Source of the DNA: an uncultured Gammaproteobacteria bacterium
Lineage (GTDB): Bacteria; Patescibacteriota; Microgenomatia; UBA8517
Assembly (NCBI GenBank): GCA_964427735.1
Contig: CAYRUS010000002.1
Coordinates: forward strand, 131,734 to 195,733
Reading direction: 5' to 3'
Length of the DNA stretch: 64,000 nucleotides
Shown here: positions 22,867-61,295 of the stretch, piece after piece
Position numbering within the stretch: the stretch's first letter is position 1
Layout of the letters: every line of letters starts with the position of its first letter
Program-made: the position numbers and the translations under genes
Notes under the pieces: model-generated
Seen by the model: the letters and a program-made list of their open reading frames with translations, nothing else
What the model was told of the DNA's origin: nothing
Database searches by the model: none

Positions 22867-22876
22867 ATTCTAATAG

Positions 22877-28419: not shown

Positions 28420-28454
28420 TACATTTCTAACACCAAGTTATAAGTTTTTAAGTT

Positions 28455-34873: not shown

Positions 34874-37393
<2,520 letters not shown>

Positions 37394-37412
37394 GATATTT
37401 ACTTATATAGAT

Positions 37413-38870: not shown

Positions 38871-38882
38871 AAATATATCTTT

Positions 38883-40005: not shown

Positions 40006-40085
40006 GTATTTCTATTTAATAAGCTCTATTGAATAAATGCAAGTAGAGTTGATACTTAGTCTAAAAGTAATTTATATTGCTTTAA

Positions 40086-41774: not shown

Positions 41775-41794
41775 TTTTATATATTATGTTCTAT

Positions 41795-43498: not shown

Positions 43499-46400
43499 AT
43501 GTCCATTTTTAATACCTGTCCAATGCCCAACAGTACAAAAGTCTATCTATCAATACACGAAGCTGCTGATTACTTGAATGTATCACGCAAAACATTAAGG
43601 CGATGGGAAAAGACTAAAGTGTTAATTCCCTTGCGCACTTCAGGTGGCCATAGAAGATATACAAAAGACCAGCTAGATAAGTTTAAAAAGATTAAAGGTA
43701 GAAAAAGAATAACAAGCAAAGTAAAGACTAAAGTATTCGAAAACAAGACTAGCCAAGCGGTACAGTTACCTACTTTGAGTAATACTAACAAAACTCAAGA
43801 AAGAACGTCAGAAGATAGTAATATTAATCTTCTTGACACAAATATAAATAATAGCCCAAAAGACGAATATATAGATTACAATGACAACCATGAACACACT
43901 ATCAAATATCATAAGGATCACATTCCTATAATCGAAACAGAAACACCATCTCAAATCACCACCGAAAATCTAATTTTGCCTCAGAATAATATCCAGACTA
44001 ATTCCAAACCTAAAAATAACGCAAGTAAATTGAGATCTGTTTCCTACTTCTTTGTGTTTCTACTCTTGTTTGGTGGATTTGTATACTCTGTAAAAGCACT
44101 CCCTGGAGTGGATCTAAATATATCAAAAGGTATCAAGTCTAGTATGGCAGGCTCATCAAACAGTGGGAATATCCAATCAGCCTTTGAAAGGGTCCTTGCT
44201 GCAACCTCTTTTAATCTTTCCTTATTACGCGTAAATGTAAACTCAATTTTCGAAGAAGACATTGCAATTAATGGTGAGAATATAACTACATCATCAGATA
44301 CAATCAATTTATTCAATGAGAACGCTACAACAATTTCCTTTGGAGGCGAAGCTGAAGCAATAAACATAGGAGCTCCCACAGGAACTACAGTTATTAATAA
44401 TGCATTAAATGTAGGATTAGATTTAGCTGTTAATGGTAATTTGTCTGTAGTAGGTATTGCTACTCTAAACACGCTTACTTTAGGAGCAGACACTATTACA
44501 GATATTACTGGAGATGGATTAATTGTGGTTGATGGTGCTCTTACTTCTACATTTGGATCGTCAATAGATTCTACTGATATAACAGATGGAACTATCTCTT
44601 CAGTAGATCTTAATATATCAAACTCTCCCTCTGATGGATTAATCCTAGCCTATGATGAATCCACCGGAGGTTTTACCTGGGTAGTAGACCAAACCGGGGC
44701 TGGAGGAAGCTTGTTCACAGACGCTGGCACAGTAACATATTTAACCGATACTACTGATGACTTGGTTATCGGCGGGACAGTTGCACTCTCCTCCAGTAAA
44801 GTATCAATAGATGGAGATAGTGACCAAATACAATTCTTAGTTCAAGGAAATTCAACCCAAACTACAAACCTTGCAGTTTTCGAACAATCAGATGGAACAG
44901 ACGTATTAACAATTGACAACTCAGGAAACTTAATAACCGCAGGAAGCATTTCAGCGGCCACCAATGAAACTATTAACGGAATTGATATTAGTGCTGGTAC
45001 TATTTCTGATGTTGTTAATTTACTCATTAATGCTGGCGGGGATTTATCAATTGGAGGAATTGGTTTAAGTGATACTGGAGCTAATAATCTAACATCAGGT
45101 GCAAGCCTAATTGGTGTTTTTGACGAATTCACAAATTCTAACTCCACTACACTCCAAGCTGTATTAAATGACCTTGATGCGGCAATAGGATCTGGTTCAT
45201 CCAAGTGGACACAAGATGTTGGATTTATTTATCTCACTAACTCGACAGACTCTATTACAATTGGAGGAAACACAGAGCTTGGAAAACTTGCTATAGCAGG
45301 TGATGCTGACGAATTGCAGTTTGTTGTTAGAGGAAATGCAACCCAAACAGCAAACCTAGCTACCTTTGAAAACTCCTCAGGGGATGATCTTTTGGCAGTT
45401 ACAAGTATGGGAGATCTTCTATCGGGATTTACACAGTTAGATGGAAGTTCAACTGCAAACGGTGCAGGTGCAGCCTCAAAAACTTTGGTCTTACAAGCAG
45501 GTGGTGGCGCCAATTTTGATATTGGAAACTATGTAAGAATTGATAGTACAAACTGCGACGGTGCCGCTGACACTTGTTATTCAAAAATTAGAGGTAAATC
45601 TGGCGACACACTTACACTAAGCAATTCCCTAACCTGGGCAAATGGTAGTGTTGTTTTAGAATATCATATACCCGAAGTCGGAGGAACTAACCTAGCTGAT
45701 ACTCTTGATAATAGATATGGTCTAGGTTATTTCATCAGCGGTGTAACCACAGGAAATGCCTCAACTTTCTATGGGGATGGCGAAATAACAACCTCAAGTG
45801 TTACTAATTTGAATTCTAAAAGCTTATCCATTCGTACAGGAAACTCAGTTGTTTCAGGAAACTCCGGAGATATAATAATTGATACTGGATCTGCAGAAGG
45901 TACAGCAGGTACAATTTCTATTGGAGAAAATAACACAAGCGGTATCACAATAGGTCATAGTGGTATAAATACTACCATATCAGGAAATCTTATTTTCAAC
46001 AGCCAAACAATTAATAACTTTACCGGCAATGGTCTAACAACATCCTCAGATGCTCTAACGATTCAACTAACAAATGCAGCAGACGAACTATCTTCTACAA
46101 CAAGCTCAGGGTCTGGTTTGGAAGTATTATCATCTGGTTTGACCCTTCTCCAAGGATGCGATAACGGTCAAGTTCTAAAGTGGAATGAATCAAATAATTC
46201 ATGGGAATGTGCAAATGACACAGGAGCCTCAAGTGCTGTAATAAATGTAGAAAACAATGATGTAGAAGTTGGTACAGACGTAGACACATTGGACTTTAGC
46301 ACAGATTTTATTCTTACAGCTTCTCCTTCTAACGAGGTCAACATATCCATAGCGGATGATGTTATAAACTTTACGGAAATTAGTGATTCGTTAACACTAG

Positions 46401-49400
46401 ACGCAAATACAAATGTAGCGCTAGGAGCTTTAACTTTTTCCACTTCAGGCACAGGATCTTTAGATTTTAATTCAACTGGTCAAGTATCCTTTGCGGGAAA
46501 TGTTGATGCGGAAAATGGACTTGACGTTACTGGATCATCATTAACTGTAGGTGGCACGGCATTTGTAGTTGGTACAGACGGAACGATTAGCGCAGGAACC
46601 TGGAGTGGAACTGCAATTGCTGCTCAGTACGGTGGAACAGGTATCGACACATCAGGAGCTACAGGTGTTCCTTATGTTTCTTCAGGTATTTGGAATACTG
46701 AATCCACTTTATCTCTTTCTCGCGGAGGTACAGGAGCATCACTTACTGATCCTAACGCTGATAGAATCCTCTTCTGGGATGACTCCGCAAACTCCACTGC
46801 CTTCCTTACTGTAGGATCTGGTCTTTCTCTCTCTGATACCACTCTCTCTGCTGTTGATACTTCTGCTACTAATGAATTGCAAAACCTCTTCTCTACTATC
46901 TCTGTCTCTGGACAAAGTAATGTAGTCGCTGATTCAATCACTGATACTCTTACTCTTGCAGCCGGATCTAATATCTCCATCACTACTGATGCATCTAATG
47001 ACATTATTACTATCGCTGCCTCTGACTCTGATACTAACAACTTCACTACAAGCATCGCTTTTACCGGTACCTCTACAAAAACTTTAACTCTAACTAGAAA
47101 TGGTCTAGCTGATCTAACTGCAAACTTTACTGATATTGGCTTTGATAACCCTATGACTACTGCAGGAGATATTATTTATGGCGGTGTTAGTGGAACAGCA
47201 ACCAGACTAGCAGGTTCTGCTAATGATGGTTACGTACTAAAATTTGATGCTAATACCAATGCTCCATTTTGGGCAGAACTCATAGATAATGATACAAACT
47301 ATTGGGAATTAAGTGAAGGCATTCTCTCTCCAGATACATCTCAAAACGCAGAAGGTATCGCAGCAACATCTTCTGCGACAACAGTTGCTACATTCACAAG
47401 CACTGGTTCAAATGATTCTTTTTGGGCAGGATCCGTAGGTAATTATTTGACAATTTCCTCTACCGGAGGTCTTACTGTCCCGGGAGCAACAAATCTTAAC
47501 GGTTCCTTTAGTTTAGGAGATGGTGGCGACACAGGATCAATTAATACATCGACATGGGACATTTCATCCACAGGAGCAATTACTGGTGCTACTTATGAAG
47601 GATTAACTATCACTACAACTACCGGTACTCTTACTATCGCATCTGGAAAGACATTAACCGCAAATAACTCCCTTACCCTTGTAGGTAATGATTCTGATAC
47701 TTGGACTTTCCCCTCTGCTTCTGGAGCGTCAGGGACAGTAGTTGGCACTGATGAATCTCAAACCTTAACAAACAAAACACTCACAAGTCCTAGAATCGGT
47801 ACCTCTATTCTTGATACTAACGAAAATCCTCTTTTTTCTCTCTCTGCAACCGGTTCAGCTGTCAATTACCTAACTTATGCTAATGCAGCTACAGGAAACA
47901 ATCCCACCTGGACTGCTACTGGGTCTGATACGAATATTTCCCTCACTACGTTGCTTAAAGGCACTGGAGCTGTTCTGTTTGGCTCAACTATTGCGAATTC
48001 TGATACAATCAGTATCAAACCACAAACTTCTACTACAACTAACCCTTTTTCTGGAACTATTACCTCTGAAGATTTAACTGCTGATAGGACCTGGACTTTC
48101 CAAGATGCAGACGGCACCCTGGCTTTCTTATCTGATATTCCTACTTCTGATAACTACCAATACTGGACATTATCTGATGGTTCTAATACAGCTCAAATCA
48201 ATAGCACTGAAACTTTTCAAATAAATACAGGTACAGGAATTACTGCTCTTGTAGCAGAAGGATCGCCAAATACATTGACGCTTTCTGTAACGGATGATTC
48301 TGATACTAATGAATTGCAAAATCTCTTCTCAACTATCGCCGTTTCCGGGCAAAATAATGTCGTCGCAGATTCAATTACTGATACTCTTACCCTTGCAGCC
48401 GGATCTAATATCTCTATAACAACAGATGATACTAATGACATTATTACCATAGCAGCCACAGATACAAATACTACCTACTCCGCAGGGAATGATCTAGATT
48501 TATCGGGTACTCAATTTAATATCGAATCTGAGCTTAATTTTGTAACCAGTATAAACCCAACAAATTCTGCACTTTCTTTAGCATCAAATGGATCTGGTAA
48601 TGATATAAATTTAACATCAGCAAACGCCATTGCCTTTGATGATGCCACATTAACTACAGCGATTACACTCACAGATACAGACACTGCTTTTGATTCTGGT
48701 CATACAGCCATAGTAGATGCTATAAATGCAGCTTATAATGCAGCAACGGGTGGAGGTGCAGGACTTTGGGAGGTAAATTCTGGTGTGTTAAATCCTTCAA
48801 GTTTAACTCAAGATCTAGCCATTGGAGGTACTGATAACACTGCAGCGCTTTTCTTTGATACAAGTACCTCTGCTTTAACATTAAATCCTTTTGGTACATC
48901 AACAGGCAATACGGGAGAGTTAAGACTTACAGAACTTGCTGCAGAAGGTACTAATTATACCGGATTTAAATCTCCTGACTCTTTAGATGCAAACTTGATG
49001 TATACACTTCCTTCCTCAGCAGGATCTAATAATTATGTACTTACAACAGATGGTTCTGGAGGTCTATCCTGGCAAGCTGTAGGAGATGTTGGCGCTGGTT
49101 CTGGAGACGTAACTGCTGTCGGTGATTGTTCTGGAAATGATTGCTTTACTCAATCAGGAACAGGAAATACTCTCTATTTTGAAGGAGCTACGGCAAATGA
49201 CTTTGAAATTGCTCTGACAACCACAGGAGACCCAGATCAAGACTACACAATCACATTGCCAAATGCTTCTGGTGAAATTACAGTATTAGGCCAAAGTATT
49301 GATTTGACAAGCGAAGTTACAGGTGTACTTCCTTTGGCTAGCGGAGGTACAGGAGCATCACTTACTGATCCTAACGCTGATGGAATCCTCTTCTGGGATG

Positions 49401-52400
49401 ACTCCGCAAACTCCACTGCCTTCCTTACTGTAGGATCTGGTCTTTCTCTCTCTGATACCACTCTCTCTGCTGTTGATACTTCTGCTACTAATGAATTGCA
49501 AAACCTCTTCTCTACTATCTCTGTCTCTGGACAAAGTAATGTAGTCGCTGATTCAATCACTGATACTCTTACTCTTGCAGCCGGATCTAATATCTCCATC
49601 ACTACTGATGCATCTAATGACATTATTACTATCGCTGCCTCTGACTCTGATACAACCTATACATTTACTAATGGTTTAACTGAATCTGGTGGCACTGCTA
49701 AACTAGGTGGAACTTTAACCGAAAATACAACTCTTACTACTGACACTTTTGCATTTATAGTTGATTCTCTTAACTTTGATGGCACTACAATTGGCTTAAC
49801 ATCAGATACTGACCTGCTCTCTTTATCTTCTGGAGCTCTAACTGTTAACGGAACTGGTACCTTTACAGGAGATCTGACTGCTAGTGCAGACTTGATTGTT
49901 AGCGGAAGAGGAAGTTTCTCCCATGGCAATAACCAAGGTCTTAATATACCAACTGTAGCAGGTACACCGTCTGCTGTTACAGGTACATCAGAAGGAGATA
50001 TTGTTTATGACTCTACTGGAGATGCTCTTTATATCTATGATGGTAGCCAATTCTCCCAAATTGGTGGTGGTGGCTACAGTGGTTGGACGTTAACCGGTGA
50101 TACGGGTTCGCAGGTTATTAGCTCCGGAGATACAGTATCTGTCATAGGCGGAACTAATTTAACTTCAGTGGTTACTGCTACTGATACTCTTACTCTCAAC
50201 CTCGATGATAATATTACCTTGGCTGGTACCACTGGTATTACACTAACGGGAACTGGCTCTGGAATAACTTTTGAAAATTCAAGCATCATTACCAATCCAT
50301 CGGCTTCGGTGTTTGCCTTTGGTGATAGTACTAACACTCTTTCACTGAACCTGGCAGCAGAATCTGCTGGGAGCATAGATTTCACCACCAACGACACCGT
50401 AAACCTCACCCTCAACCCGGGAGGAAACGTCGGGATTGGGACGACTGATCCATCAGAGATGCTACATGTGGCAGGAGATGTACTCTTTGAGCAAAATCTC
50501 GCAATCAACGATGCCTCTATACATGATAATTATGTCATCAACATGAAAGTCGGCAACACTACAAGCGGAAGTGGTCACAGAGGCATTAATATGTCAGGTG
50601 AAAATATTAGCAAAAACGTTACTGGATTGTTTTTGAGCGTAAACAACACAAGCGCAAATACCACTGGAGTAAATACCTTTGTGATTGGAACTGATGCAGC
50701 TTCTCTCTACGGGGCTTCGAATATTTTGATTACAAATTATGCAGCTTATGGAGTCAATAACTCTATTACTGCTAAAGATGACGCCACTCAACAAAGACTA
50801 TATGGAACCCGCACTGAATTGACAACCTACACCAATGATGTTGGGTACGGACTTTTTGTCAAGCCTTCCATTTTTGCCACCGGAGGTACTCAATACGGCG
50901 CCTATTTTGATTTTACAAGCTCCAACACAACTAACTATGGTGTCTACCAAACTGGTGAAGCCACCAACTATTTCGCAGGTACGGTGGGGATTGGTGATGA
51001 TGCTCCGGATTTTGCGCTGCAGATTGGCGAGGTGGCAGCGGGAGTGGATACGGCTAATGGAGTCGGGATTGCCGGGGACTTACAGGTGGATGACTTTGCC
51101 CTCATAAATGCACTTAGAGTAGGATCAACTGCTACGGATCCAGGAGATGGAAATGCATACATTGAGGGGAATTTGACAGTGAACGGTCGAGGAATCTTTA
51201 CTCATGGCAATAACCAAGGTCTTAATATACCAACTGTAGCAGGTACACCGTCTGCTGTTACAGGTACATCAGAAGGAGATATTGTTTATGACTCTACTGG
51301 AGATGCTCTTTATATCTATGATGGTAGCCAATTCTCCCAAATTGGTGGTGGTGGCTACAGTGGTTGGACGTTAGATGGTGATACAGGAACTCCTGAAAGT
51401 ATAAATTCATCAGACACAGTAACTTTTGCAGGAGGGAATGGTTTAGCATCTGTGGTGTCCTCTACTGACACACTTACCTTTAACTTAGCAGCCCTTACAT
51501 CTGACTGGGATCAAACAGGCGCAAACGACATCATACTAAATCATGCTGACTCAGAACTTAAGATTTTAGAGAGTACAGGAGGAACATATTATGCCACTAT
51601 TGACGCTGGAGATTTAGACCAAGATGCAACTTTGAGAATAGATTCAGGAATTAACCTTGATGGAAATGGCAATACCCTCACCTTATCAGGAAATCTAAAT
51701 GTTGAAAGCATTTCAGCCATTAACCAAGATCTAACCACTGATGCAACAGGTGTGGCATTTGGAGATTTAACCTTAGCAGGTTCAGCTGAAGGTACAGATG
51801 CATTGACCATCACCGCAGGTGACCTCACTCTGGAAGATGGCGATCTAGTACTATCCTCTGGACAATTTACTCTAAATTCTGATGATACTGATGTTACCAC
51901 CGATGAACTTAAGGCATTTAACTTAACTTCCTCTGTCACATTTGATACAACATCAGCAAGCCTTATAAATTATGGTGCTTATATCAGTAACACGAGCAGT
52001 ATCAGCAGTGGTGCAAACACTCTTACTAATATTGGTCTTTATGCAACTGCATCTGGTGCAGACAATAATTATGCAGCGATATTTGAAAATGGAAATGTAG
52101 GAATTGGAACTACATCTCCTACAGAAAAACTACACGTATCTGGTGATGCCTTGCTAAGTGGGCAACTTGCCCTTCATGGAGCTAGTGTAAATGACGACTA
52201 CGCAATTAATATTGGAAATCTCTCAACGAACCAACGAGGTATTAACATCTCTGCAGGAAGCCCAACTAGTCCAGTGTATGGAGTGTACTTTGACATTAGC
52301 AACCCCGGTAGCACTGGTGCAAGTTATGCGTACTATGCCAATGCAACTAATCCCGGCGATTTTGCTGGTTTGATGACAAACGTAACGGGCGGCCGATCAC

Positions 52401-55400
52401 ACGGAGTGGTTAACAACCTCACTGTGACTAGTGATTATGGATATGGTGTAAGAAACACCATCACCTCAAGCAGTACTGGATTTAACTCAATTTATGGCGT
52501 CAGGTCAGACTTAACCTCAGCTGGTACTGACTCTCTAGGAATCAACAACGCTTATGGAAATTTTAATATTATCAAGGGAACCAATGACGAATTTGCGCAA
52601 AAGCTGTTCGGATCGTACACAGAATTAACTACCCACGCAAATGATCTAGGATACGGCATGATGGTAACCAACGCAGCAGCCTCAACTGGAGGTACTACCT
52701 ATGGAGTTTATCTTAATCTTACCGACACGGATGTGACTCGCTACGGTATTTATGAAGCCGGAGGCGCTACAAACTACTTCGAAGGTAGTATTGGAGTTGG
52801 AACCAACAATCCAGGTGCAAAACTGGATGTTCAAGGAGGGCTAAGATTAGGAGCTGATACAGGTGCAAATAACATCTTAAATACAACTGCAGCAGCAGGA
52901 GCAGCGAGCGGAGATCTTTACTGGGGAGACAAACTTCTTTGTGATTCAAGCGAGTCAAACTGTGGTTGGACTACTAGTTCAAGTGGATCAAATTACTGGA
53001 CTGCAGATTCAGGTGTACTCTCTCCAAACGGTACTGACGGAGAAGTTATTGCTGCAACATCCTCAGCTACGACAGTTGCTACATTTACCTCAGAAGGGTC
53101 AAATGATGCTCTAAAAGCCGGCTCTACTGATAACTACTTTACAGTTGGAAATGGTGGACACGCTAGACTGGTTGATGGCTCTGTCTCAACTCCTGGACTT
53201 GGATTTGTTAACGATCCTGATACTGGAATTTATAGATCTGCTTCTGACACACTTGATTTTACTGCAGGTGGAGTTAGAGGTCTTTCTATCAATACAATCG
53301 CAAGCGGTGTGAACTACTTGTCTCTTACCCCTTCAGCAACCGGTAATTCAGTTGACCTAGGAGTGGCAGGAAGTGATGCTAATATTGGACTAGATATTGC
53401 AAGCAAAGGTACAGGTTCAATTTCATTTACATCTGGAAATATAACTGGAACTGGATCATCAAGTTCGTTTGTATTTAATGCAAATGCCTTAACCTCCGGT
53501 TATGGAATAGATTTGACATCAACCTCTACAGGACTTACTACAGGAAGACTGCTTAATCTCTCATGGGAACCAGGCTCTGCAACTACAGCTACAGGTGATC
53601 TATTCCGATTAAACATTGGGGCAAATGGAAATATAGGCAATCTGTTCCATATCACAGACAATGGCTCTACCCTCTTTAGAGTAAGCGAAAGCCAAATAGA
53701 ATCAGCACTTCCTCACGCATTTACAGCTACAGGAGATGTCTCTGTTGCTTATGACCTTGTCTTTACAAACCAATCATCAGGTGAAATTCAATCTTATGGA
53801 CCATTGACTATAGCTTCTGGAGAAAGATTTGAAAACAATAACTTAACTCTTAGAACCTACGGGACAGGAGATTTGGTAGCAGACTTAGGAGCATCTGGAG
53901 AATTTATCCCGGGAACAGATGATGCACACAATTTAGGAAACAGCACCAATAGATGGAAAGAGGTATTCTCTGCTCTTGGAACAATTAACACATCTGATGC
54001 AAGGCTCAAAACTGATGTAGTCGAAATGGATTATGGACTAGAGACACTTATGCAACTTAGACCAGTTAGTTACACACTCAAAGGAAACGAAGAAAGTGGA
54101 ACTCAATTAGGATTAATCGCACAAGAAGTTTTAGGAATTATTCCAGAAGTTGTGAGAGTTCCAGAAGACATTAATAATGGCTATTATGGAATTCGATACT
54201 CCAGCTTAATACCAGTATTAATAAATTCAATTCAAGAACAACAAGAAATTATAACTAATCAAAAAAGTCAGCTTACCACTCTACAATCAGACTTAGCATC
54301 CATCAGCACTAAAGTTGGTAATATTGAGTTAAACTCTACAGGAGAAATTGCAAGTATAGCAGCTGACTTAATTGCAACAAATGAAATTAAAGCTAGAAAT
54401 GGAAATCTTGAAATTGATCTTGCTGAAAGCAACGCAGAAGGTAAATTAGTGATAACAGGACAAAATGAAAAAACTGTAGCAGAAATAGATAGCGAAGGAA
54501 ATGCCAGATTTGATGGAAAAATTAAAGCAGAAGAAATCAATACTCAAAACCTAGAAACTGAAAATGCTACAGTTTCTGGCGAGCTAAGAGCAAAGAAAAT
54601 AATAGCTGATGAAATAATTGGATTTGAATCAAACTCTATAACCAGATCAGAAATCGAAGCAATGCTTGCAGAGTACGAACAAGATCAATCTTTACTTAAT
54701 GAAGCTTCAGAATGGGAATTAGGAACTACTGAAGGAGTTGCATCCCTAACTGAACTGATGACAGAAAATCTCTATGTTACTCAAACAGCAGCATTGGATT
54801 CATTATCTGTTTCAAACTCTGCAGTAATTGGTGGAGATATTATAATTTCACCTTCAAATATTGAAGCAGGTCTTGGAAATAGCATTAATACATTGACTTC
54901 TCCTCTCGAACTTCAATCTGCTGCATCTCAACCATTGAAGATCATGGCTGGTTTAGTAACTATTGATACAAATGGTAATGTAACTATCTCAGGAGATTTG
55001 GCTGTTGCTGGAAAAGTAACAACATCCGGAATAAACTTGGTACAAGATGATACACAAGAGGCTACTGAAAGCGCAACTGTACTTTCTGTTACCGATAAAG
55101 AAGGCTCAGAAGTAGCAACTGTAACAGCAACAGGTTCGGCTACATTTAAAGAATTGTCTGCAGATCGATTTGCAGTAAAACAGGACGAAGAAGCAACCTC
55201 GACTGAAAACTCTGCCGGTACAACATTTACAAACAATGCATCAGCTGGATCTGCAATAATTCCTGCTGGATCAAAACAAGTAATAATCAAAAATAATATA
55301 GTAAAAGAAAATTCGCTGATTTTTGTTACACCAACATCACCAACACCTAATACTATATATATAAAGGATCAAGTAGAGGGTGCATTTATGGTTGGATTTG

Positions 55401-55456
55401 ATACTGGAACTCAAGACGAGGTTAAATTTAACTGGTGGGTGGTTGATGTCCAATAA
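43499..55456 (+). CDS. giant (3985 aa) membrane-anchored fibre-like surface protein: N-terminal HTH_17-like domain, single TM, ~3,200-aa Ser/Thr/Gly/Asn-rich repeat ectodomain, then a phage tail-spike-type intramolecular chaperone auto-processing (peptidase S74-like) domain and a C-terminal coiled-coil
   Basis: One uninterrupted ORF. aa ~15-65 'LSIHEAADYLNVSRKTLRRWEKTKVLIPLRTSGGHRRYTKDQLDKF' is an HTH. TM 'VSYFFVFLLLFGGFVYSV' at nt ~44039-44092. Recurring 'xGNVGIGTTxPxxxLHVxGD' tail-fibre-like modules. nt ~53918-54270 'SDARLKTDVVEMDYGLETLMQLRPVSYTLKGNEESGTQLGLIAQEVLGIIPEVVRV...YSSLIPVLINSIQEQQ' matches the conserved S74/CIMCD signature. Near-identical internal DNA repeats are listed separately. 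Confidence 0.8.
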   Translation: MSIFNTCPMPNSTKVYLSIHEAADYLNVSRKTLRRWEKTKVLIPLRTSGGHRRYTKDQLDKFKKIKGRKRITSKVKTKVFENKTSQAVQLPTLSNTNKTQERTSEDSNINLLDTNINNSPKDEYIDYNDNHEHTIKYHKDHIPIIETETPSQITTENLILPQNNIQTNSKPKNNASKLRSVSYFFVFLLLFGGFVYSVKALPGVDLNISKGIKSSMAGSSNSGNIQSAFERVLAATSFNLSLLRVNVNSIFEEDIAINGENITTSSDTINLFNENATTISFGGEAEAINIGAPTGTTVINNALNVGLDLAVNGNLSVVGIATLNTLTLGADTITDITGDGLIVVDGALTSTFGSSIDSTDITDGTISSVDLNISNSPSDGLILAYDESTGGFTWVVDQTGAGGSLFTDAGTVTYLTDTTDDLVIGGTVALSSSKVSIDGDSDQIQFLVQGNSTQTTNLAVFEQSDGTDVLTIDNSGNLITAGSISAATNETINGIDISAGTISDVVNLLINAGGDLSIGGIGLSDTGANNLTSGASLIGVFDEFTNSNSTTLQAVLNDLDAAIGSGSSKWTQDVGFIYLTNSTDSITIGGNTELGKLAIAGDADELQFVVRGNATQTANLATFENSSGDDLLAVTSMGDLLSGFTQLDGSSTANGAGAASKTLVLQAGGGANFDIGNYVRIDSTNCDGAADTCYSKIRGKSGDTLTLSNSLTWANGSVVLEYHIPEVGGTNLADTLDNRYGLGYFISGVTTGNASTFYGDGEITTSSVTNLNSKSLSIRTGNSVVSGNSGDIIIDTGSAEGTAGTISIGENNTSGITIGHSGINTTISGNLIFNSQTINNFTGNGLTTSSDALTIQLTNAADELSSTTSSGSGLEVLSSGLTLLQGCDNGQVLKWNESNNSWECANDTGASSAVINVENNDVEVGTDVDTLDFSTDFILTASPSNEVNISIADDVINFTEISDSLTLDANTNVALGALTFSTSGTGSLDFNSTGQVSFAGNVDAENGLDVTGSSLTVGGTAFVVGTDGTISAGTWSGTAIAAQYGGTGIDTSGATGVPYVSSGIWNTESTLSLSRGGTGASLTDPNADRILFWDDSANSTAFLTVGSGLSLSDTTLSAVDTSATNELQNLFSTISVSGQSNVVADSITDTLTLAAGSNISITTDASNDIITIAASDSDTNNFTTSIAFTGTSTKTLTLTRNGLADLTANFTDIGFDNPMTTAGDIIYGGVSGTATRLAGSANDGYVLKFDANTNAPFWAELIDNDTNYWELSEGILSPDTSQNAEGIAATSSATTVATFTSTGSNDSFWAGSVGNYLTISSTGGLTVPGATNLNGSFSLGDGGDTGSINTSTWDISSTGAITGATYEGLTITTTTGTLTIASGKTLTANNSLTLVGNDSDTWTFPSASGASGTVVGTDESQTLTNKTLTSPRIGTSILDTNENPLFSLSATGSAVNYLTYANAATGNNPTWTATGSDTNISLTTLLKGTGAVLFGSTIANSDTISIKPQTSTTTNPFSGTITSEDLTADRTWTFQDADGTLAFLSDIPTSDNYQYWTLSDGSNTAQINSTETFQINTGTGITALVAEGSPNTLTLSVTDDSDTNELQNLFSTIAVSGQNNVVADSITDTLTLAAGSNISITTDDTNDIITIAATDTNTTYSAGNDLDLSGTQFNIESELNFVTSINPTNSALSLASNGSGNDINLTSANAIAFDDATLTTAITLTDTDTAFDSGHTAIVDAINAAYNAATGGGAGLWEVNSGVLNPSSLTQDLAIGGTDNTAALFFDTSTSALTLNPFGTSTGNTGELRLTELAAEGTNYTGFKSPDSLDANLMYTLPSSAGSNNYVLTTDGSGGLSWQAVGDVGAGSGDVTAVGDCSGNDCFTQSGTGNTLYFEGATANDFEIALTTTGDPDQDYTITLPNASGEITVLGQSIDLTSEVTGVLPLASGGTGASLTDPNADGILFWDDSANSTAFLTVGSGLSLSDTTLSAVDTSATNELQNLFSTISVSGQSNVVADSITDTLTLAAGSNISITTDASNDIITIAASDSDTTYTFTNGLTESGGTAKLGGTLTENTTLTTDTFAFIVDSLNFDGTTIGLTSDTDLLSLSSGALTVNGTGTFTGDLTASADLIVSGRGSFSHGNNQGLNIPTVAGTPSAVTGTSEGDIVYDSTGDALYIYDGSQFSQIGGGGYSGWTLTGDTGSQVISSGDTVSVIGGTNLTSVVTATDTLTLNLDDNITLAGTTGITLTGTGSGITFENSSIITNPSASVFAFGDSTNTLSLNLAAESAGSIDFTTNDTVNLTLNPGGNVGIGTTDPSEMLHVAGDVLFEQNLAINDASIHDNYVINMKVGNTTSGSGHRGINMSGENISKNVTGLFLSVNNTSANTTGVNTFVIGTDAASLYGASNILITNYAAYGVNNSITAKDDATQQRLYGTRTELTTYTNDVGYGLFVKPSIFATGGTQYGAYFDFTSSNTTNYGVYQTGEATNYFAGTVGIGDDAPDFALQIGEVAAGVDTANGVGIAGDLQVDDFALINALRVGSTATDPGDGNAYIEGNLTVNGRGIFTHGNNQGLNIPTVAGTPSAVTGTSEGDIVYDSTGDALYIYDGSQFSQIGGGGYSGWTLDGDTGTPESINSSDTVTFAGGNGLASVVSSTDTLTFNLAALTSDWDQTGANDIILNHADSELKILESTGGTYYATIDAGDLDQDATLRIDSGINLDGNGNTLTLSGNLNVESISAINQDLTTDATGVAFGDLTLAGSAEGTDALTITAGDLTLEDGDLVLSSGQFTLNSDDTDVTTDELKAFNLTSSVTFDTTSASLINYGAYISNTSSISSGANTLTNIGLYATASGADNNYAAIFENGNVGIGTTSPTEKLHVSGDALLSGQLALHGASVNDDYAINIGNLSTNQRGINISAGSPTSPVYGVYFDISNPGSTGASYAYYANATNPGDFAGLMTNVTGGRSHGVVNNLTVTSDYGYGVRNTITSSSTGFNSIYGVRSDLTSAGTDSLGINNAYGNFNIIKGTNDEFAQKLFGSYTELTTHANDLGYGMMVTNAAASTGGTTYGVYLNLTDTDVTRYGIYEAGGATNYFEGSIGVGTNNPGAKLDVQGGLRLGADTGANNILNTTAAAGAASGDLYWGDKLLCDSSESNCGWTTSSSGSNYWTADSGVLSPNGTDGEVIAATSSATTVATFTSEGSNDALKAGSTDNYFTVGNGGHARLVDGSVSTPGLGFVNDPDTGIYRSASDTLDFTAGGVRGLSINTIASGVNYLSLTPSATGNSVDLGVAGSDANIGLDIASKGTGSISFTSGNITGTGSSSSFVFNANALTSGYGIDLTSTSTGLTTGRLLNLSWEPGSATTATGDLFRLNIGANGNIGNLFHITDNGSTLFRVSESQIESALPHAFTATGDVSVAYDLVFTNQSSGEIQSYGPLTIASGERFENNNLTLRTYGTGDLVADLGASGEFIPGTDDAHNLGNSTNRWKEVFSALGTINTSDARLKTDVVEMDYGLETLMQLRPVSYTLKGNEESGTQLGLIAQEVLGIIPEVVRVPEDINNGYYGIRYSSLIPVLINSIQEQQEIITNQKSQLTTLQSDLASISTKVGNIELNSTGEIASIAADLIATNEIKARNGNLEIDLAESNAEGKLVITGQNEKTVAEIDSEGNARFDGKIKAEEINTQNLETENATVSGELRAKKIIADEIIGFESNSITRSEIEAMLAEYEQDQSLLNEASEWELGTTEGVASLTELMTENLYVTQTAALDSLSVSNSAVIGGDIIISPSNIEAGLGNSINTLTSPLELQSAASQPLKIMAGLVTIDTNGNVTISGDLAVAGKVTTSGINLVQDDTQEATESATVLSVTDKEGSEVATVTATGSATFKELSADRFAVKQDEEATSTENSAGTTFTNNASAGSAIIPAGSKQVIIKNNIVKENSLIFVTPTSPTPNTIYIKDQVEGAFMVGFDTGTQDEVKFNWWVVDVQ
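46722..47034 (+). repeat. 313-bp intragenic direct repeat, copy 1 (~99% identical to 49341-49653)
   Basis: Direct reading: identical except for a single visible substitution (gatagaatcc vs gatggaatcc). Encodes 'RGGTGASLTDPNAD(R/G)ILFWDDSANSTAFLTVGSGLSLSDTTLSAVDTSATNELQNLFSTISVSGQSNVVADSITDTLTLAAGSNISITTDASNDIITIAASDSDT'. Confidence 0.9.
48301..48465 (+). repeat. diverged (~85%) third copy of the 3' part of the 313-bp intragenic repeat
   Basis: '...TNELQNLFSTIAVSGQNNVVADSITDTLTLAAGSNISITTDDTNDIITIAATDT' at protein level; nucleotide similarity clear by eye. Confidence 0.7.
49341..49653 (+). repeat. 313-bp intragenic direct repeat, copy 2
   Basis: See copy 1; offset 2619 nt (a multiple of 3, so the frame is preserved). 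Confidence 0.9.
49922..50092 (+). repeat. 171-bp intragenic perfect direct repeat, copy 1 (identical to 51203-51373)
   Basis: Encodes 'HGNNQGLNIPTVAGTPSAVTGTSEGDIVYDSTGDALYIYDGSQFSQIGGGGYSGWTL' in both places; offset 1281 nt (in frame). Confidence 0.9.
51203..51373 (+). repeat. 171-bp intragenic perfect direct repeat, copy 2
   Basis: See copy 1. Confidence 0.9.
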
Positions 55457-58400
55457 AATGAAAAAACTAAAAAGACTAAAAATATTTAGAACAAAAAAAC
55501 AGAGATTATTAGCCTTATTTATGCTAGTGGTCTTTTTAGGATCTATCGTACTTTTTAATTTAATTTTTATTAAAGATGCAAGCGCTGCTTGGTGGGACGA
55601 CAACTGGGCTTACAGAGTAAGAGTACCTGTAACAAACAATACAACTACAGAGACAGACGTATACATTGTCTTTGATGGAGACACACTATTTATAGACACA
55701 TCTGATACAAATAAATTTCAGGCAGATTGTGGTGACTTAAGATTCCTAAAAGAAAACGGAGATCTTCTTCCCTATCGCGTAGTCTCTGGATGTGGTACTG
55801 CAAATACAGAAGTTCATGTCAATTTTGACAAGTTTCCTACGGGATCACAAAACATATACTATTATTATGGTAATCCCGATGCTCCAGATGGTTTTGTCAC
55901 CTCTTCTTTTTCTACAGAAGCATCTGATTACACAATTGGCACACCAGCCTCAGAAGAAAAAGGTCCGACACCTGCAATTTATTTAAAATTTGATGAAGGA
56001 TATGGAACAACTGCCTTTGATAGTTCCTCAAATGGTAATGATGGTTCAATCTCATCGGCAAGATGGAAAAACAAAGATTACTGCATTTATGGTAATTGTC
56101 TATTTTTTGACGGAATAGATGATGTAGTAACTGTAGCAAATGCCAATTCAATTGACTTTGATAGTGATTTGGCAGACGGGTTTACCATTGGTATGTGGGT
56201 TAGAGTTAATTCAGATGGTGAAAGTTCAACAGGAGAAATTCTAGATAAAGGAACTAACACTTATATTAAAGTTCATTCAGAAGATACTGACGGCAAAGCT
56301 GATTTAGAAGTCAAACTGGACCTAACAACAACGGACGCAAATTTAAATATTACCGATGGGATAACCATTGATAGATGGCATCACCTATCAGTGATATACG
56401 ACGGAAACAGTTCTATAACTGTATACATAGATGGAGAAAATTCGGGAAGCAATACTGGATCCGGAAGTCTGGAAACTGATACCAGTGATTTATTAATTGG
56501 TGGTGATTCAGCGAATAATTTCCACGGCTTTATTGACGAATTTAAAATATACAATTACATCCGTACCGCTAACCAAATACAATCAGACATTATAAATCTT
56601 GCTTCAGATAGAGGCAACAGTGCCACTTTTGGAACTAGTAATAAATTTTTATCAGATGGACTGATGGGATATTGGAACTTGGACGAAGAAAGCGGTAATG
56701 CAACTGATAATAGTGGGCATGGAGTTACTTTAACAAACAATAACACTACTACTTTAACTGGAGGTAAATACGGACATTCAGGTGATTTTGAGAGTTCCAA
56801 CTCTAATTTTTTTAATGCCATCCAGGGAAGTTCAAGCACTGTAAATACTGCCATAGTGAGACAAAATGCTCCAACCACATTTGGGACACAAGACTTTACA
56901 TCTACTGGGTTTGGTACACCAAAAGCAGCACTTTTTATTATGTCAGAAGCACCTTCTGAGGGATCAGTAACCGCAAATGCATCTCTTAGCATTGGTTTTA
57001 CAGATGGGGTTAGTCAATTTGTAAATGCTGTAAAAAGTGTGGATAACGTTTCTCCTGTTGATACATTTACGCAGTTAAGCAATGCTGCTGTCATTGAAGA
57101 AGGAACTACTTCCAGTTCACGAGCACGAGCATCATTTGATTCTTGGATTACAGATGGTGTACGAATCAATTGGGCGAGTAATAGTGGTGGAGGGAATCGA
57201 TTGGTTACTGTGATTTTGTTTGGTGGCGATGATCTTAATGCAAAAGTCACATCTTTTACCACAAATTCCACCAGTGGAAACTCTACAAATGTAGATTTGG
57301 GATTCGTACCAGACCTGGCATTTTTTATGACAGGATCTTCCGGAACATCAACGATCTCAAATGCATGGACGAGCTTTGGTTTTTCCAGTAACACAACTCC
57401 TATCGTGAATAGTTCTGTTAACATTTTCTCTGGCGACAACATATCGACTTCTGAAACATTCATGTTCGCACATACCAACAGAGCCTACTTGAGAATGAGA
57501 TCTAACGCAAGTACAGTTCAACATTCTGCTGAAGTCACGGGTTATATAAGCACACCTGTCCAGGGCATACAGGTTACAACCAGAGATGTAAACAGAAGTG
57601 CGGATATAGCAACATTAGCTTTTAAGTTTAATGATGGAGCAGAATTCTGGGCTGGTATGGTCGATTCTCCAACTACAACCGGTGATCATTCTGTTACCTC
57701 ACCTGGATTCGAACCTTCATTCGTTTGGCAGTTTATGTCAAATGTCACAGCTTTGAATACAAAAATCGACGGGGTCGCATTGGGTTCTTCAACCTTTAAT
57801 TCTACTACAAGTTACAGCAACAGTATGACAGATCAAGACAATGTGTCTACATCAGTTGCAAAATCTCTATCTGAATCAAAAGCAGTTAAACAAAATTTAC
57901 AAAATAACACGACCGGCTTTACAGGAACACTATCTTCTATGGATTCATCAGGTTGGACAATAAATTATACAGATACCCAATCTACTTCAGCTAAATGGCC
58001 TGCTATGGCGATTGGCGGTGGCAACGGTGGAAGTCAATCAGCAACTTCCCATGATCACCTAAATCCACCAGAAAGTCTAACAATTTCTACTTGGATTAAA
58101 CCAGAATCTGTTACTGCTGATACCCAATTTAATATTGTTGGTAAATGGGACAGTAGTGAAGAAGGATATTTGCTTGCTCAATATGGAGATGAAATAAGAA
58201 TGTATATAAATTCAAACTCAAACTATGTAACTACAAATTCTGCCAACCTTTCTACTGGAGTTTGGTACCACATAACAAGCATATATGACGCTCAAGAGCA
58301 AAAAGTAAAAATTTTTATTAATGGTAATGAATCTCCTGCCACAACAACCGGCACAATACCGTCTGCTATTACAAACACCGGAGGAGTTTTCCATATAGGT

Positions 58401-61295
58401 GCAGCAAATTCTACAAACACTGCAGAAAACTTTTATGATGGAAAAATTGATGATGTGAGAATTTACAACCGTGCATTTCTAATTTCCGAAATTACCAAAC
58501 TCTATCAATGGTCCCCCGGTCCTGTAGCTCACTGGAAATTAGACGAAGGGACAGGAACAATTGCAAATGATTCATCTACTTATATTAAAGGCGGAACGCT
58601 AGGTGGAGATGGTGTAGGAACTGACATCCCTACCTGGACTGATGGAAAATACTCCAAGGGACTTCATTTTGACGGCACAGATGACTATGTAGATGTAGGC
58701 ACTGAAATTGGATTTAGATACAGCTTTACTGCAATGGGGTGGATATATTTAGAAGAAGATCCTTCAGCTGGAGGTGATGATTGTGATACTCCGATTATAA
58801 ACAAGCAGGGCGATTTGAGTTCAAGAGATTTTGAACTACAAAACGAATGCGGGTCATGGCAGTTCAGAGTAGCTTCTTCAGACGGATCTGCAAATATTGA
58901 TTTATACGCTGATACGAATGCAAATGAAGATATCGGAGTCTGGACACACGTTGCAGGAGTATATGATTCTGAAAACCAGACGATGGACATATATATAAAT
59001 GGTGTTAAGTCAAATGGACTTTTAACTAATTCTGTACCATCCTCTATAAACAAAACTAACAATCCTGTTTGGTTGGGTGCAAGAGAAAGTGTAGGGTTTT
59101 TGGAGGGTAGGCTGGATGATATTAAACTTTATAATTATCCCCGATCTTCAAAACAAGTAATAGAAGATTTGAATGCAGGGACCCCTTCCCCCGGATCTCC
59201 TATAGGGTCAGCAGTAGCTAGATGGAAATTTGACGAAGGCTATGGAACTACTGCCTATGATTCAAATACCGAAAACGGTGACGCTCTAGACTTGACTTTA
59301 TCAACAGAAGACTCTGCATGGATAAATGATGGGAAGTTTGGAAAAGCATTTAGTGCAGGTGGATCTCGTTGGCTAACAAGAGCTGATGATGACCATCTGG
59401 ATTTCGAAGCAAGCGAAGATATGACAATAAGCTTTTGGCTCCGATCAACAATTGCCGCTGGAGGAAACCCAACTTCTACCGAATATATTATTAACAAACC
59501 ACCATCAGGAACTACAAACGGCGGCTATGCAATCTATGCTAATACTTCTGGTCAAATTTGCTTCGGAATTGACGATGATAATAGCAGTTTCCCAGAAGAT
59601 GAAACCTGCACTAGTGATGATATCTATGACAATGAATGGCATCACGTCACAGCTGTTAAAGATGGTGTTTCTAGCCTTAGAATGTATGTTGATGGCCGTC
59701 AAAACGGTAATCCTGACTTATCTATATCTGCAACAACAAATACTCTTGCAAACTCCTCAGACTTTTTTGTCGGGTCAGCAGATGCAGTAGACAATGACGA
59801 CGACTTTAACGGAGATCTGGATGAGATACAAATATTTAGATCTACACTAGATTCTAGTCAGGTCAAAATTCTTTATAATCAAGGTTTTGCACAAACAATG
59901 GGAACAACCAGTACAGATTCCTCTGGTGATGGCACATATTCTTCTAGTAATGAATATTGTCCTCCAGGATTTGAGTCTACCTGTGCTCCACCAATTGCTC
60001 ATTGGAAGATGGATGAAAATACAGGCACTATAGTAAATGATATTTCTGGCAACAATTTAACTGGCAATCTAACCTCCTCCCCTGCTACAGCCACATGGAC
60101 TCAAGGAGTAAAAGGTGCAGGACTAAAATTTAATGGAGTTGATACTGCAGAAGAATTTATTACTGTTCCAGATGCAGATAGTAGTATTGCTGACTTTGGT
60201 GCAAGTGATAGCTTCTCTATTAGTTTGTGGGTAAAAGGTGACACACTCACAGATCGCCAAGTATTAGTAGCTAACGATGGACCGGGATATCTGATTCAGA
60301 TTGGAGGAAGCGCCAACAGTGGATATGCTCTTTTCCAGGTTCGTGATGGAACTTTTACACCAACTGTCAACTCTGGCTCCACCTCAATTGGCGATAACAA
60401 ATGGCACCATGTGGTTGGCATTAGAGATAAATCTTCAACTCAGTTGCATATATATGTTGATGGAATTTTAAGAGGCGTCAGTACAGACACCACCACAGGT
60501 TCTCTAGATAATACTGCCGATATATTAATAGGTGGAACATTATCATTCCCTTCTCAAGCATATATGGATGATGTAAAAATTTTTGACTATGCTTTGACTC
60601 CTGCACAAGTAGCATGGGATTACAATAGAGGCGGTCCTGTGGGATGGTGGAAGTTTGATGAATGTGAAGGACCAACAGGTTATGATTCGAGTGGATTTGA
60701 AAACAACGGAACAATTAATCCTGGTGACTCCACTGGAGCTAATGACTCAGTGGGTACTTGTACAGGAGGTTCTGGAGAAATGAGATCCGAAGGTGCAAAT
60801 GGAAAAAGAAACACTTCTCTTGATTTTGATGGTACCAATGATAATGTAAGCATAACTGGTATTGGAGTATTTAATAATCTAACTCAGTTCACTACTTCTG
60901 CTTGGTTTAAATGGGATAGCACAGGTTCTCAACAAGTGATCGTTAACAAATCAACTTCTGCACACTTGTATATTAATTCCAGCAATATTTTAAGTAGTTT
61001 TATAGGTGGCTCAGAATGCTCGTCTGGTGTTTCAATTTCACAAGATGTTTGGTACTACGGCACTGTAACTTATGATAGTACTAATGTAAAAATATACGTT
61101 AATGGTAATCTTAAATCGACTTGCGCAAGAACAGCTACTACAGGAACTGGTGATTTAACAATTGGATCAGACAGTACGCCATCCCAATATTTTGACGGAC
61201 AGATTGATGATGTAAAAATTTATAACTATCCTCAGACAGTAAACCAAATAAGAGCATCAATGAATGAAGGAGCTGTAAGGTTTGGAAATAATTAG
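55446..61295 (+). CDS. giant (~1,950 aa) secreted/anchored protein built from at least six tandem LamG / concanavalin-A-like lectin (Laminin_G_3-type) domains plus an S/T/N-rich region
   Basis: Start is ambiguous: ATG 55446 overlaps the upstream stop by 11 nt, and ATG 55458 follows it directly. N-terminal 'MKKLKRLKIFRTKKQRLLALFMLVVFLGSIVLFNLIFIKDASA' is a signal/anchor. Repeated modules begin 'W(K/N)(F/L/M)DE(G)xG' and contain 'L(H/K)FDG(T/V)DDYV.V', 'F(T/S)(I/A)..W(V/I)', 'WHHV..V(Y/K)D', 'IY(I/V)(N/D)G' and 'G.(I/L)D(D/E)(V/I)(K/R)I(Y/F)N'. This is the canonical LamG_3 pattern. Confidence 0.8.
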   Translation: MSNKMKKLKRLKIFRTKKQRLLALFMLVVFLGSIVLFNLIFIKDASAAWWDDNWAYRVRVPVTNNTTTETDVYIVFDGDTLFIDTSDTNKFQADCGDLRFLKENGDLLPYRVVSGCGTANTEVHVNFDKFPTGSQNIYYYYGNPDAPDGFVTSSFSTEASDYTIGTPASEEKGPTPAIYLKFDEGYGTTAFDSSSNGNDGSISSARWKNKDYCIYGNCLFFDGIDDVVTVANANSIDFDSDLADGFTIGMWVRVNSDGESSTGEILDKGTNTYIKVHSEDTDGKADLEVKLDLTTTDANLNITDGITIDRWHHLSVIYDGNSSITVYIDGENSGSNTGSGSLETDTSDLLIGGDSANNFHGFIDEFKIYNYIRTANQIQSDIINLASDRGNSATFGTSNKFLSDGLMGYWNLDEESGNATDNSGHGVTLTNNNTTTLTGGKYGHSGDFESSNSNFFNAIQGSSSTVNTAIVRQNAPTTFGTQDFTSTGFGTPKAALFIMSEAPSEGSVTANASLSIGFTDGVSQFVNAVKSVDNVSPVDTFTQLSNAAVIEEGTTSSSRARASFDSWITDGVRINWASNSGGGNRLVTVILFGGDDLNAKVTSFTTNSTSGNSTNVDLGFVPDLAFFMTGSSGTSTISNAWTSFGFSSNTTPIVNSSVNIFSGDNISTSETFMFAHTNRAYLRMRSNASTVQHSAEVTGYISTPVQGIQVTTRDVNRSADIATLAFKFNDGAEFWAGMVDSPTTTGDHSVTSPGFEPSFVWQFMSNVTALNTKIDGVALGSSTFNSTTSYSNSMTDQDNVSTSVAKSLSESKAVKQNLQNNTTGFTGTLSSMDSSGWTINYTDTQSTSAKWPAMAIGGGNGGSQSATSHDHLNPPESLTISTWIKPESVTADTQFNIVGKWDSSEEGYLLAQYGDEIRMYINSNSNYVTTNSANLSTGVWYHITSIYDAQEQKVKIFINGNESPATTTGTIPSAITNTGGVFHIGAANSTNTAENFYDGKIDDVRIYNRAFLISEITKLYQWSPGPVAHWKLDEGTGTIANDSSTYIKGGTLGGDGVGTDIPTWTDGKYSKGLHFDGTDDYVDVGTEIGFRYSFTAMGWIYLEEDPSAGGDDCDTPIINKQGDLSSRDFELQNECGSWQFRVASSDGSANIDLYADTNANEDIGVWTHVAGVYDSENQTMDIYINGVKSNGLLTNSVPSSINKTNNPVWLGARESVGFLEGRLDDIKLYNYPRSSKQVIEDLNAGTPSPGSPIGSAVARWKFDEGYGTTAYDSNTENGDALDLTLSTEDSAWINDGKFGKAFSAGGSRWLTRADDDHLDFEASEDMTISFWLRSTIAAGGNPTSTEYIINKPPSGTTNGGYAIYANTSGQICFGIDDDNSSFPEDETCTSDDIYDNEWHHVTAVKDGVSSLRMYVDGRQNGNPDLSISATTNTLANSSDFFVGSADAVDNDDDFNGDLDEIQIFRSTLDSSQVKILYNQGFAQTMGTTSTDSSGDGTYSSSNEYCPPGFESTCAPPIAHWKMDENTGTIVNDISGNNLTGNLTSSPATATWTQGVKGAGLKFNGVDTAEEFITVPDADSSIADFGASDSFSISLWVKGDTLTDRQVLVANDGPGYLIQIGGSANSGYALFQVRDGTFTPTVNSGSTSIGDNKWHHVVGIRDKSSTQLHIYVDGILRGVSTDTTTGSLDNTADILIGGTLSFPSQAYMDDVKIFDYALTPAQVAWDYNRGGPVGWWKFDECEGPTGYDSSGFENNGTINPGDSTGANDSVGTCTGGSGEMRSEGANGKRNTSLDFDGTNDNVSITGIGVFNNLTQFTTSAWFKWDSTGSQQVIVNKSTSAHLYINSSNILSSFIGGSECSSGVSISQDVWYYGTVTYDSTNVKIYVNGNLKSTCARTATTGTGDLTIGSDSTPSQYFDGQIDDVKIYNYPQTVNQIRASMNEGAVRFGNN

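Follow-up and report, generated by a model that had tools for sequence, protein, structure and literature searches.

Why should stretches of a very long, repetitive gene be identical to the base when the protein repeats around them have drifted far apart? The question is raised by a 64-kb window of contig CAYRUS010000002.1 (the window is the whole stretch of DNA that was analysed, and all coordinates refer to it). In it, a gene of about 12 kb encodes what is best read, from its domain content, as a membrane-anchored, phage-tail-fibre-like surface fibre. Two pairs of modules within this giant fibre gene, which we call A1/A3 and B1/B2 (Table 1), are nearly or fully identical in DNA. We consider it probable that these are two old paralogous module pairs that were recently made DNA-identical by intragenic gene conversion.

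The two families differ in length and spacing. A1 and A3 span 105 residues each and lie 2619 nt (873 residues) apart, and the B cores span 57 residues and lie 1281 nt (427 residues) apart, with two copies in each case. Direct comparison confirmed what an earlier note, made from the letters alone, had reported for them: A1 and A3 differ at a single position out of 313 (46763, A versus G, changing AGA for Arg to GGA for Gly at residue 1089), and B1 and B2 show zero mismatches over 171 nt. The note had also placed a third copy of the A family, about 85% identical, at 48301-48465. This copy, A2, is present, with 83.6% identity over 165 nt between those coordinates and 46864-47028, and 85.6% over 160 nt in a blastn match at 48298-48457. 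The likeness is carried by one half of the module, the NELQ half, which has about 84-86% DNA identity to A1 and A3, whereas the N-terminal half of A2 shares just 33% protein identity with them. All offsets are indeed multiples of three, as had been stated (2619, 1281 and, for the NELQ half of A2 against A1, 1437 = 3 x 479), but this adds no independent evidence, because both copies of each repeat are translated in one frame of one open reading frame (ORF).

Both families sit within a broader pattern of older repetition. Protein self-comparison of the giant fibre, performed with chunked queries, recovered three copies of family A (aa 1071-1194, 1582-1670 and 1944-2068), two copies of family B (aa 2113-2235 and 2538-2663, 75% identity overall) and several weaker repeat pairs, and it found no tandem array of identical repeats. 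The B modules head two ancient tandem units, U1 and U2, which share about 45% amino acid identity with many indels. At the DNA level, the A and B blocks are the only long exact repeats in the window; the next is a 33-nt repeat that is intergenic and lies elsewhere. The edges of the blocks also differ. Directly outside block A, ungapped identity is at the random level. Around block B, identity remains raised over roughly 30 nt to the left and 14 nt to the right and then falls, and the extended comparison (49892-50106 versus 51173-51387) gives 93%.

Synonymous sites separate the blocks from their surroundings. In the codon alignment of B, the core has 0 changes in 41.7 synonymous sites, whereas the aligned flanks have 60% nucleotide identity, a proportion of synonymous differences (pS) of 0.69 and an estimated synonymous divergence (dS) of about 1.9. 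When the columns of this alignment (369 nt, 80 differences) were shuffled, none of 20000 permutations reached an identical run of 171 nt (largest 65, mean 19.6), which excludes chance as the source of the B identity. The A core likewise has 0 synonymous changes in about 81 synonymous sites, together with one non-synonymous change, and its flanks are saturated where they can be aligned (pS 0.64-0.75).

As two controls indicate, modules can be kept alike by selection at the protein level while their DNA diverges. The first is A2 itself, the NELQ half of which has 87% amino acid and 83% nucleotide identity to A1/A3, with dS 0.81, a non-synonymous divergence (dN) of 0.063 and dN/dS of about 0.08. 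Since this is the same module, protein constraint alone leaves its DNA about 83% identical. The second is a homologous protein (P0058, in locus L012), in which a block of 138 residues is repeated with 100% protein identity (aa 628-765 versus 1070-1207). Between its two DNA copies (L012 3175-3588 versus 4501-4914; ENA ERZ2772623 NODE_2644), 74 nucleotides differ, 66 of these in the third position of a codon, with pS 0.645 and dS of about 1.5. Such a pattern implies that the protein sequence is extremely constrained or, possibly, that recombinogenic DNA identity is selected against. The tail-fibre motif DSAPAALNTLNELAAALGDD lies in this 138-aa block, of which a further protein, P0131, has a version with 90.6% identity. 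Constraint on the protein therefore fails to account for the identical DNA in the window, which must stem from recent homogenisation. The earlier note had drawn this conclusion from DNA identity far above the protein-level divergence, and it holds: the cores have dS = 0, their flanks are saturated, and A2 has a dS of 0.81.

Whether the homogenisation was a recent duplication or gene conversion had been left as an alternative in that note. For B, the evidence favours conversion. The B flanks are homologous and yet ancient, as the divergence of U1 and U2 shows, which argues that the module pre-existed at both sites. A comparison with the positional orthologue points the same way. This orthologue (P0032, in locus L011 of assembly GCA_964355505.1) lies in the same gene order of a 252-aa gene, the helix-turn-helix (HTH) fibre gene and a giant gene with laminin G (LamG) domains. 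It has 2339 aa, a difference of 1646 aa from the giant fibre, and is collinear with it in the N- and C-terminal parts, with the middle modules reordered. It lacks module A and has a single B, so the comparison of tract with flank could be made for B only. In the core, B1 and B2 share 100% protein identity with each other and each shares 72% with the orthologue. In the flanks, B1 and B2 share 42%, B1 and the orthologue 43% (53% for the right flank), and B2 and the orthologue 29%. Because core and flank identities disagree in this way, the B duplication is at least as old as the split from the orthologue's genome, with the core homogenised later. Such incongruence is a standard signature of gene conversion, seen here in a small flank sample.

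For A1/A3 the two routes are not separable, and it is here that recent segmental copying has to be weighed, that is, the 313-nt and perhaps also the 171-nt module being newly placed at a non-homologous site, through illegitimate recombination or by template switching, too recently to have diverged. To the left of the blocks, no alignment of A1 with A3 is possible (32% nucleotide identity, i.e. random), the block edges are very sharp, and module A is a self-contained module that occurs in many fibre proteins, as seen in searches and in the alignment with short metagenomic homologues. On the other side, the right flank of A still retains 50% nucleotide and 32% amino acid identity, and the presence of A2 marks the module family as an old one in this gene. 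The B flanks are plainly homologous yet saturated and lie in an ancient unit of 425-585 aa, which places the module at both sites beforehand. Two in-frame insertions exactly at module boundaries would also be less parsimonious than the overwriting of an existing module. We therefore regard segmental copying as an unlikely account of the locus as a whole, and favour gene conversion.

Comparable blocks were found in related genes, and these bear on both readings. Sharp-edged blocks of about 360-370 nt lie in unrelated contexts within a 6421-aa ORF of candidate division WWE3 (L003) and between two Dojkabacteria genes (L004), a point that also favours segmental copying; their identity, read off identity plots, is roughly 90-95%, with many differences spaced three bases apart. 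The orthologue bears its own perfect 304-nt repeat, with copies 906 nt apart and in another module; its left flank is partly diverged and its right edge is sharp. Furthermore, exact internal peptide repeats of at least 20 residues occur in 30 of the 120 homologues with at least 700 aa. Homogenisation of module-sized segments followed by synonymous decay looks like a general property of this class of fibres. The WWE3 ORF (L003 770-20035, +, in the metagenome-assembled genome (MAG) contig JBPOHV010000001.1) is a single fibre-related gene in which numerous exact repeats of 37-116 nt lie scattered at several different spacings. A search of genome and metagenome contigs with aa 1001-2700 of the giant fibre returned distant relatives only (WWE3, Dojkabacteria and MAGs, 33-72% identity over parts), and the protein collection likewise yielded no close one.

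Could the identity have been made by the assembler? Logan contigs built from two sequencing runs match the window at 100% identity. The first, SRR7082976_2943 (L001), spans 30086-46751 at least and stops after the first 30 nt of A1 (A1 start + 29); the second, SRR7082966_927, starts at 51344 and takes in the last 30 nt of B2 (B2 end - 29). We take the Logan k-mer size to be 31, so that 30 is k-1. Contigs that end k-1 nt inside the repeats indicate that the graphs branch at the exact repeat edges, and because they branch there, the reads must contain A in two different left contexts and B in two different right contexts. Moreover, since the repeats are not interleaved (A..A..B..B), a single linear order uses each unique piece once. 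These contig ends in two runs also bear out the earlier warning that such repeats put assemblies at risk. When the inter-repeat region served as a protein query, no near-identical Logan fragments came back, and contigs for 47035-49340 and 50093-51202 were not recovered.

An assembly artefact, with similar copies made near-perfect by consensus or one copy threaded twice, would draw on the fact that the window equals the Logan contigs base for base, so that the same short-read data probably lie behind both. Fragmentation and mis-assembly of giant, repeat-rich genes is a recognised problem (10.1101/2023.11.21.568195), and short reads are unable to resolve repeat elements accurately (PMC9704523). 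However, an independent k=31 assembly of two runs branches at the exact repeat edges, which places two contexts for each repeat in the reads; the non-interleaved repeats permit one linear path; the single-nucleotide polymorphism (SNP) between A1 and A3 survived assembly; and the ORF stays open through every inter-repeat segment. In addition, the unrelated assembly GCA_964355505.1 has the same kind of repeat in its perfect 304-nt pair. We judge an artefact to be improbable. For practical purposes, any assembly of this genome from short reads will be interrupted at 46.7-51.4 kb, or could give a wrong number of copies there, and neither the length nor the module content of the gene should be trusted without long reads.

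With gene conversion preferred, the mechanism that we propose is non-reciprocal homologous recombination within the gene, which would overwrite old paralogous modules in tracts of 313 nt (A1/A3) and 171 nt (B1/B2). The tract edges would fall where usable homology between the diverged modules ends, and the recombination would presumably be of the RecA type. The identity would then be a by-product of recombination in a repetitive gene and not a dedicated switch.

Several points weigh against this explanation. For A1/A3, a very recent copy of the module and conversion would fit the data equally well and are indistinguishable, and the random left flanks described above belong to the same difficulty. 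The flank comparison with the orthologue rests on about 57-99 aligned residues. No recA was seen in the window, and the recombination pathway is assumed. Taken by itself, the short-read graph also fits extra copies, a mixture of deletion variants, or a few copy-specific SNPs hidden by the consensus. Finally, bubble popping or the threading of one consensus by the assemblers could have led to the repeat identity being slightly overstated.

If conversion has produced islands of identity, these islands may also be long enough for unequal crossing-over, which would remove or add 873 aa (A) or 427 aa (B) in frame and would be a likely route of change in shaft length and module content across the fibre gene family. 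Simulated deletions of 2619 nt (873 aa) and 1281 nt (427 aa) keep the ORF open and give products of 3112 and 3558 aa, respectively. The minimal length for efficient homologous recombination in bacteria is about 25-30 nt, and because repeats of 171-313 nt are well above it, rare variants are to be expected in any large population. Such expected rare variants are distinct from a selected switch. On sequence grounds, switching of fibre length within a population is plausible, while the difference in length and module order between the giant fibre and its orthologue is to be read as long-term plasticity and not as switching.

A stronger claim would be that of programmed length or antigenic variation, in which selection preserves the identity islands so that they can recombine and the population always includes cells with long and cells with short fibres, a dispersed-repeat, trimeric parallel to the Periscope Proteins or to the size variation of streptococcal M protein. 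Either of the possible deletions would be in frame and would remove whole modules; the positional orthologue is 1646 aa shorter and contains a perfect repeat of its own; comEC and comEA lie nearby, making recombination-proficient DNA handling plausible; and for surface proteins, length variation has been proposed to arise through homologous recombination among their highly identical repeats (PMC9704523). Yet the repeats have two copies each and are dispersed, with no tandem array. The 138-aa pair of P0058, identical in protein and synonymously saturated in DNA, indicates that the family needs no DNA identity and hints that there is no selection for it, and passive conversion as a by-product accounts for everything seen. 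We therefore hold programmed variation to be quite improbable. No greater weight can be given to the related proposal that the islands are actively maintained and the fibre is length-polymorphic through in-frame loss or gain of 873 or 427 aa, which would make it a trimeric, dispersed-repeat counterpart of the Periscope Proteins in an episymbiotic lineage. Were it true, the reach of the fibre towards host cells could be tuned, or recognition by host or phage evaded.

Selection might instead act on the nucleotide sequence itself, through an embedded RNA, a regulatory element or a selfish in-frame element, or the blocks could form a template and variable repeat pair of a diversity-generating retroelement (DGR). 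A conserved DNA or RNA element would also give exact, sharp-edged identity, and the lone difference between A1 and A3 is an A in one copy and a G in the other. Against this, the segments are ordinary protein modules common to many other fibre proteins, and one substitution in 313 nt is unlike the pattern of adenine mutagenesis. We find this family of explanations barely credible. An Rfam search of 43000-56000 gave no match except a sub-threshold chance match upstream of the gene, and the blocks show no terminal inverted repeats and no notable hairpins. Embedded RNA, elements resembling miniature inverted-repeat transposable elements (MITEs) and RPE-like elements were rejected, given no Rfam family in the gene and no meaningful inverted repeats at the block ends. 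A DGR was rejected because there is no reverse transcriptase and no adenine-specific pattern (1 difference in 313 nt and 0 in 171 nt); the search for a reverse transcriptase covered 40 ORFs of at least 150 aa, of which 36 were scanned with Pfam and four are housekeeping enzymes named by NCBIfam.

Table 1. Repeats, domains and partner gene of the giant fibre locus, in window coordinates.
Feature	Coordinates	Strand	Evidence
Giant ORF, 3985 aa, containing all repeats	43499..55456	+	ORF list, translation, Pfam, PDB sequence matches
N-terminal MerR/HTH_17 helix-turn-helix, aa 16-66	43544..43696	+	Pfam MerR_1 5.3e-10, HTH_17 3e-9, MerR 2.3e-8, all above cut-offs
Sole hydrophobic segment, aa ~180-202, SVSYFFVFLLLFGGFVYSV, putative membrane anchor	44036..44104	+	Kyte-Doolittle
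Repeat A1, 313 nt, aa 1075-1179, sub-modules GGTGASLTDPNADRILFWDDS... and TNELQNLFSTISVSGQSNVVADSITDTLTLAAGSNISITTD...	46722..47034	+	one mismatch to A3
Repeat A2, old diverged copy of module A, aa 1582-1670	48242..48508	+	protein and DNA comparison with A1/A3
Repeat A3, 313 nt, aa 1948-2052, near-identical partner of A1	49341..49653	+	direct comparison
Ancient tandem unit U1, aa 2113-2537, B1 at head	49835..51109	+	protein self-comparison, alignment with U2
Repeat B1 core, 171 nt, aa 2142-2198, HGNNQGLNIPTVAGTPSAVTGTSEGDIVYDSTGDALYIYDGSQFSQIGGGGYSGWTL	49922..50092	+	identical to B2
Ancient tandem unit U2, aa 2538-3125, B2 at head	51110..52873	+	protein self-comparison, alignment with U1
Repeat B2 core, 171 nt, aa 2569-2625	51203..51373	+	identical to B1
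Peptidase_S74 intramolecular chaperone domain, aa 3499-3553, motif SDARLK	53993..54157	+	Pfam 52.6 bits versus cut-off 22
Downstream partner gene, 1971 aa, six Laminin_G_3 domains, outside the repeats	55380..61295	+	Pfam 1.5e-138

The protein that carries these repeats combines an HTH domain, a single hydrophobic segment, a long modular shaft and a chaperone domain. The MerR/HTH_17 domain is presumably cytoplasmic, and the orthologue has the same domains at the N-terminus of its fibre. The hydrophobic segment is where 19-residue Kyte-Doolittle windows reach their protein-wide maximum of 1.9. About 3300 residues form a Thr/Ser/Gly-rich modular shaft without a Pfam match, and modules A, B and C had zero Pfam matches even at E = 1. 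Matches to PHROGs in the giant fibre were limited to the HTH. The Peptidase_S74 match covers the full profile (1-58), exceeding the Pfam gathering score, and opens with Ser3499 and Lys3504, five residues apart in an S-D-x-R-x-K pattern, with SDARLK read from the sequence. This Ser and Lys would be the catalytic residues, as in endosialidase and T5 pb1. If autocleavage at Ser3499 were to happen, a fragment of about 487 aa would be freed. The fibre is probably trimeric, since the Peptidase_S74 chaperone is known from trimeric phage fibres.

Some features of the protein are unusual. About 430 residues lie C-terminal of Peptidase_S74 (53993-55456, +), and the chaperone tail of a phage fibre is usually much shorter. 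A DNA-binding-type domain that precedes the membrane helix, at the cytoplasmic end of a predicted extracellular fibre of 3700 residues, is puzzling. An excisionase/MerR-type HTH_17 domain is N-terminal in two dissimilar proteins of the window, the giant fibre (43544-43696, +) and a Peptidase_M20 enzyme (5701-7059, -). A search with the N-terminal 210 aa matched five short HTH proteins only. In exact-sequence look-ups, neither the giant protein nor the downstream LamG protein had a record, and the neighbouring genes alone were recorded. At the start of module A, both A1 and A3 carry the 22-residue motif GGTGASLTDPNADRILFWDDSA (46725-46790 and 49344-49409). No Pfam family covers this motif. It recurs with hardly any change in many short proteins from metagenomes that are otherwise unrelated, and in some of these Mtd_N (PF18454) or DUF2793 is also present.

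The surrounding genes are chromosomal, including phosphoglycerate mutase (pgm), F1 ATP synthase subunits, leuS, argS, mreB, comEC and comEA, and GC content is about 34%. Because the closest loci found elsewhere are those of candidate division WWE3 and Dojkabacteria, the host would be a bacterium of the candidate phyla radiation (CPR), or Patescibacteria, type. The LamG gene directly follows the fibre gene, and this position is kept in the orthologous locus (L011 8448-11426), so the fibre and LamG proteins probably work together. Overlap between the LamG ORF and the fibre gene amounts to 77 nt at most, with the Logan gene call starting at about 55446. The comEC and comEA genes (27328-29120, -) lie 15 kb upstream of the fibre gene and are consistent with DNA uptake in a reduced genome. 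Elsewhere in the window, an intergenic element with the internal palindrome CCACCTTTAAGGGAGTCTCCCTGCAAGG occurs in three copies (12943-12970, 20058-20097 and 22828-22867, +), with 0 expected by chance, and in a partial inverted copy near 22058. These copies surround an IS200-like Y1 transposase gene (ORF 22054-22785, +) in an arrangement that resembles REP/RAYT.

Giant surface fibres are among the few candidates for host contact by ultra-small CPR bacteria. This locus shows such fibres evolving by module duplication, reordering and homogenisation, as phage tail fibres do, and it supplies two defined in-frame junctions that can be searched for in read data.

How does the giant fibre compare with known systems? 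The closest parallel in surface proteins is offered by streptococcal M protein and the Periscope Proteins, a class reviewed in PMC9704523 that includes Rib, alpha C, SasG/Aap and SHIRT-repeat proteins (the review also cites Hollingshead, Fischetti and Scott 1987). In these proteins the number of highly identical intragenic repeats changes by homologous recombination, which gives size variation. They and the giant fibre have in common that the repeats of a surface stalk or fibre are far more alike in DNA than the function of the protein demands, that recombination between such in-frame repeats would alter length without destroying the protein, and that short-read assemblies fail there. The differences are equally clear. 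The repeats of the giant fibre are dispersed (2619 and 1281 nt apart), with two near-identical copies each, rather than tandem. Its anchor is an N-terminal membrane helix, unlike the cell-wall sorting signal of M protein and the Periscope Proteins. Moreover, the Periscope class is monomeric and excludes mosaic multimeric stalks (PMC9704523), whereas the giant fibre has a Peptidase_S74 domain typical of trimeric fibres. The giant fibre has no tandem array of repeats longer than 50 residues, the hallmark of the class. With dispersed repeats in two copies each and an S74 domain suggestive of a trimer, it falls outside the definition of a Periscope Protein in PMC9704523.

The giant genes of Omnitrophota (10.1101/2023.11.21.568195) are similar in that they encode very long, predicted membrane-anchored extracellular proteins, are derived from metagenomes, and have repeats that fragment short-read assemblies. 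In contrast, the gene described here has no dockerin or thrombospondin repeats and no enzyme domains, is roughly ten times shorter, and belongs to another phylum.

Mosaic phage tail fibres, such as T5 pb1, the endosialidase tailspikes and the T4 long tail fibre, share with the giant fibre an S74 domain with the Ser-Lys motif and a modular, reordered middle. The C-terminal region of the giant fibre also matches PDB entries 4uw8 (T5 L-shaped tail fibre) and 6f45 (long tail fibre distal subunit), and the NELQ sub-module, which is half of module A, is common to annotated phage tail fibres. Conserved motifs serve as recombination points for the exchange of tail-fibre modules among phages. Unlike these fibres, however, the giant gene is chromosomal and syntenic in another CPR genome, its product starts with an HTH and a membrane helix, and the protein is far longer, with about 430 residues after S74.

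In process, the locus most resembles gene conversion and concerted evolution between bacterial paralogues, for example tufA/tufB and the rRNA operons. As in those cases, a patch that is fully identical, including its synonymous sites, lies within an older, diverged homology, and patch and flanks disagree in their relationships once an orthologue is added. The difference is that the partners here are modules in one ORF, with tracts of 171-313 nt bounded by module edges. Concerted evolution of intragenic repeats in surface proteins is already well known, and this locus adds a further example.

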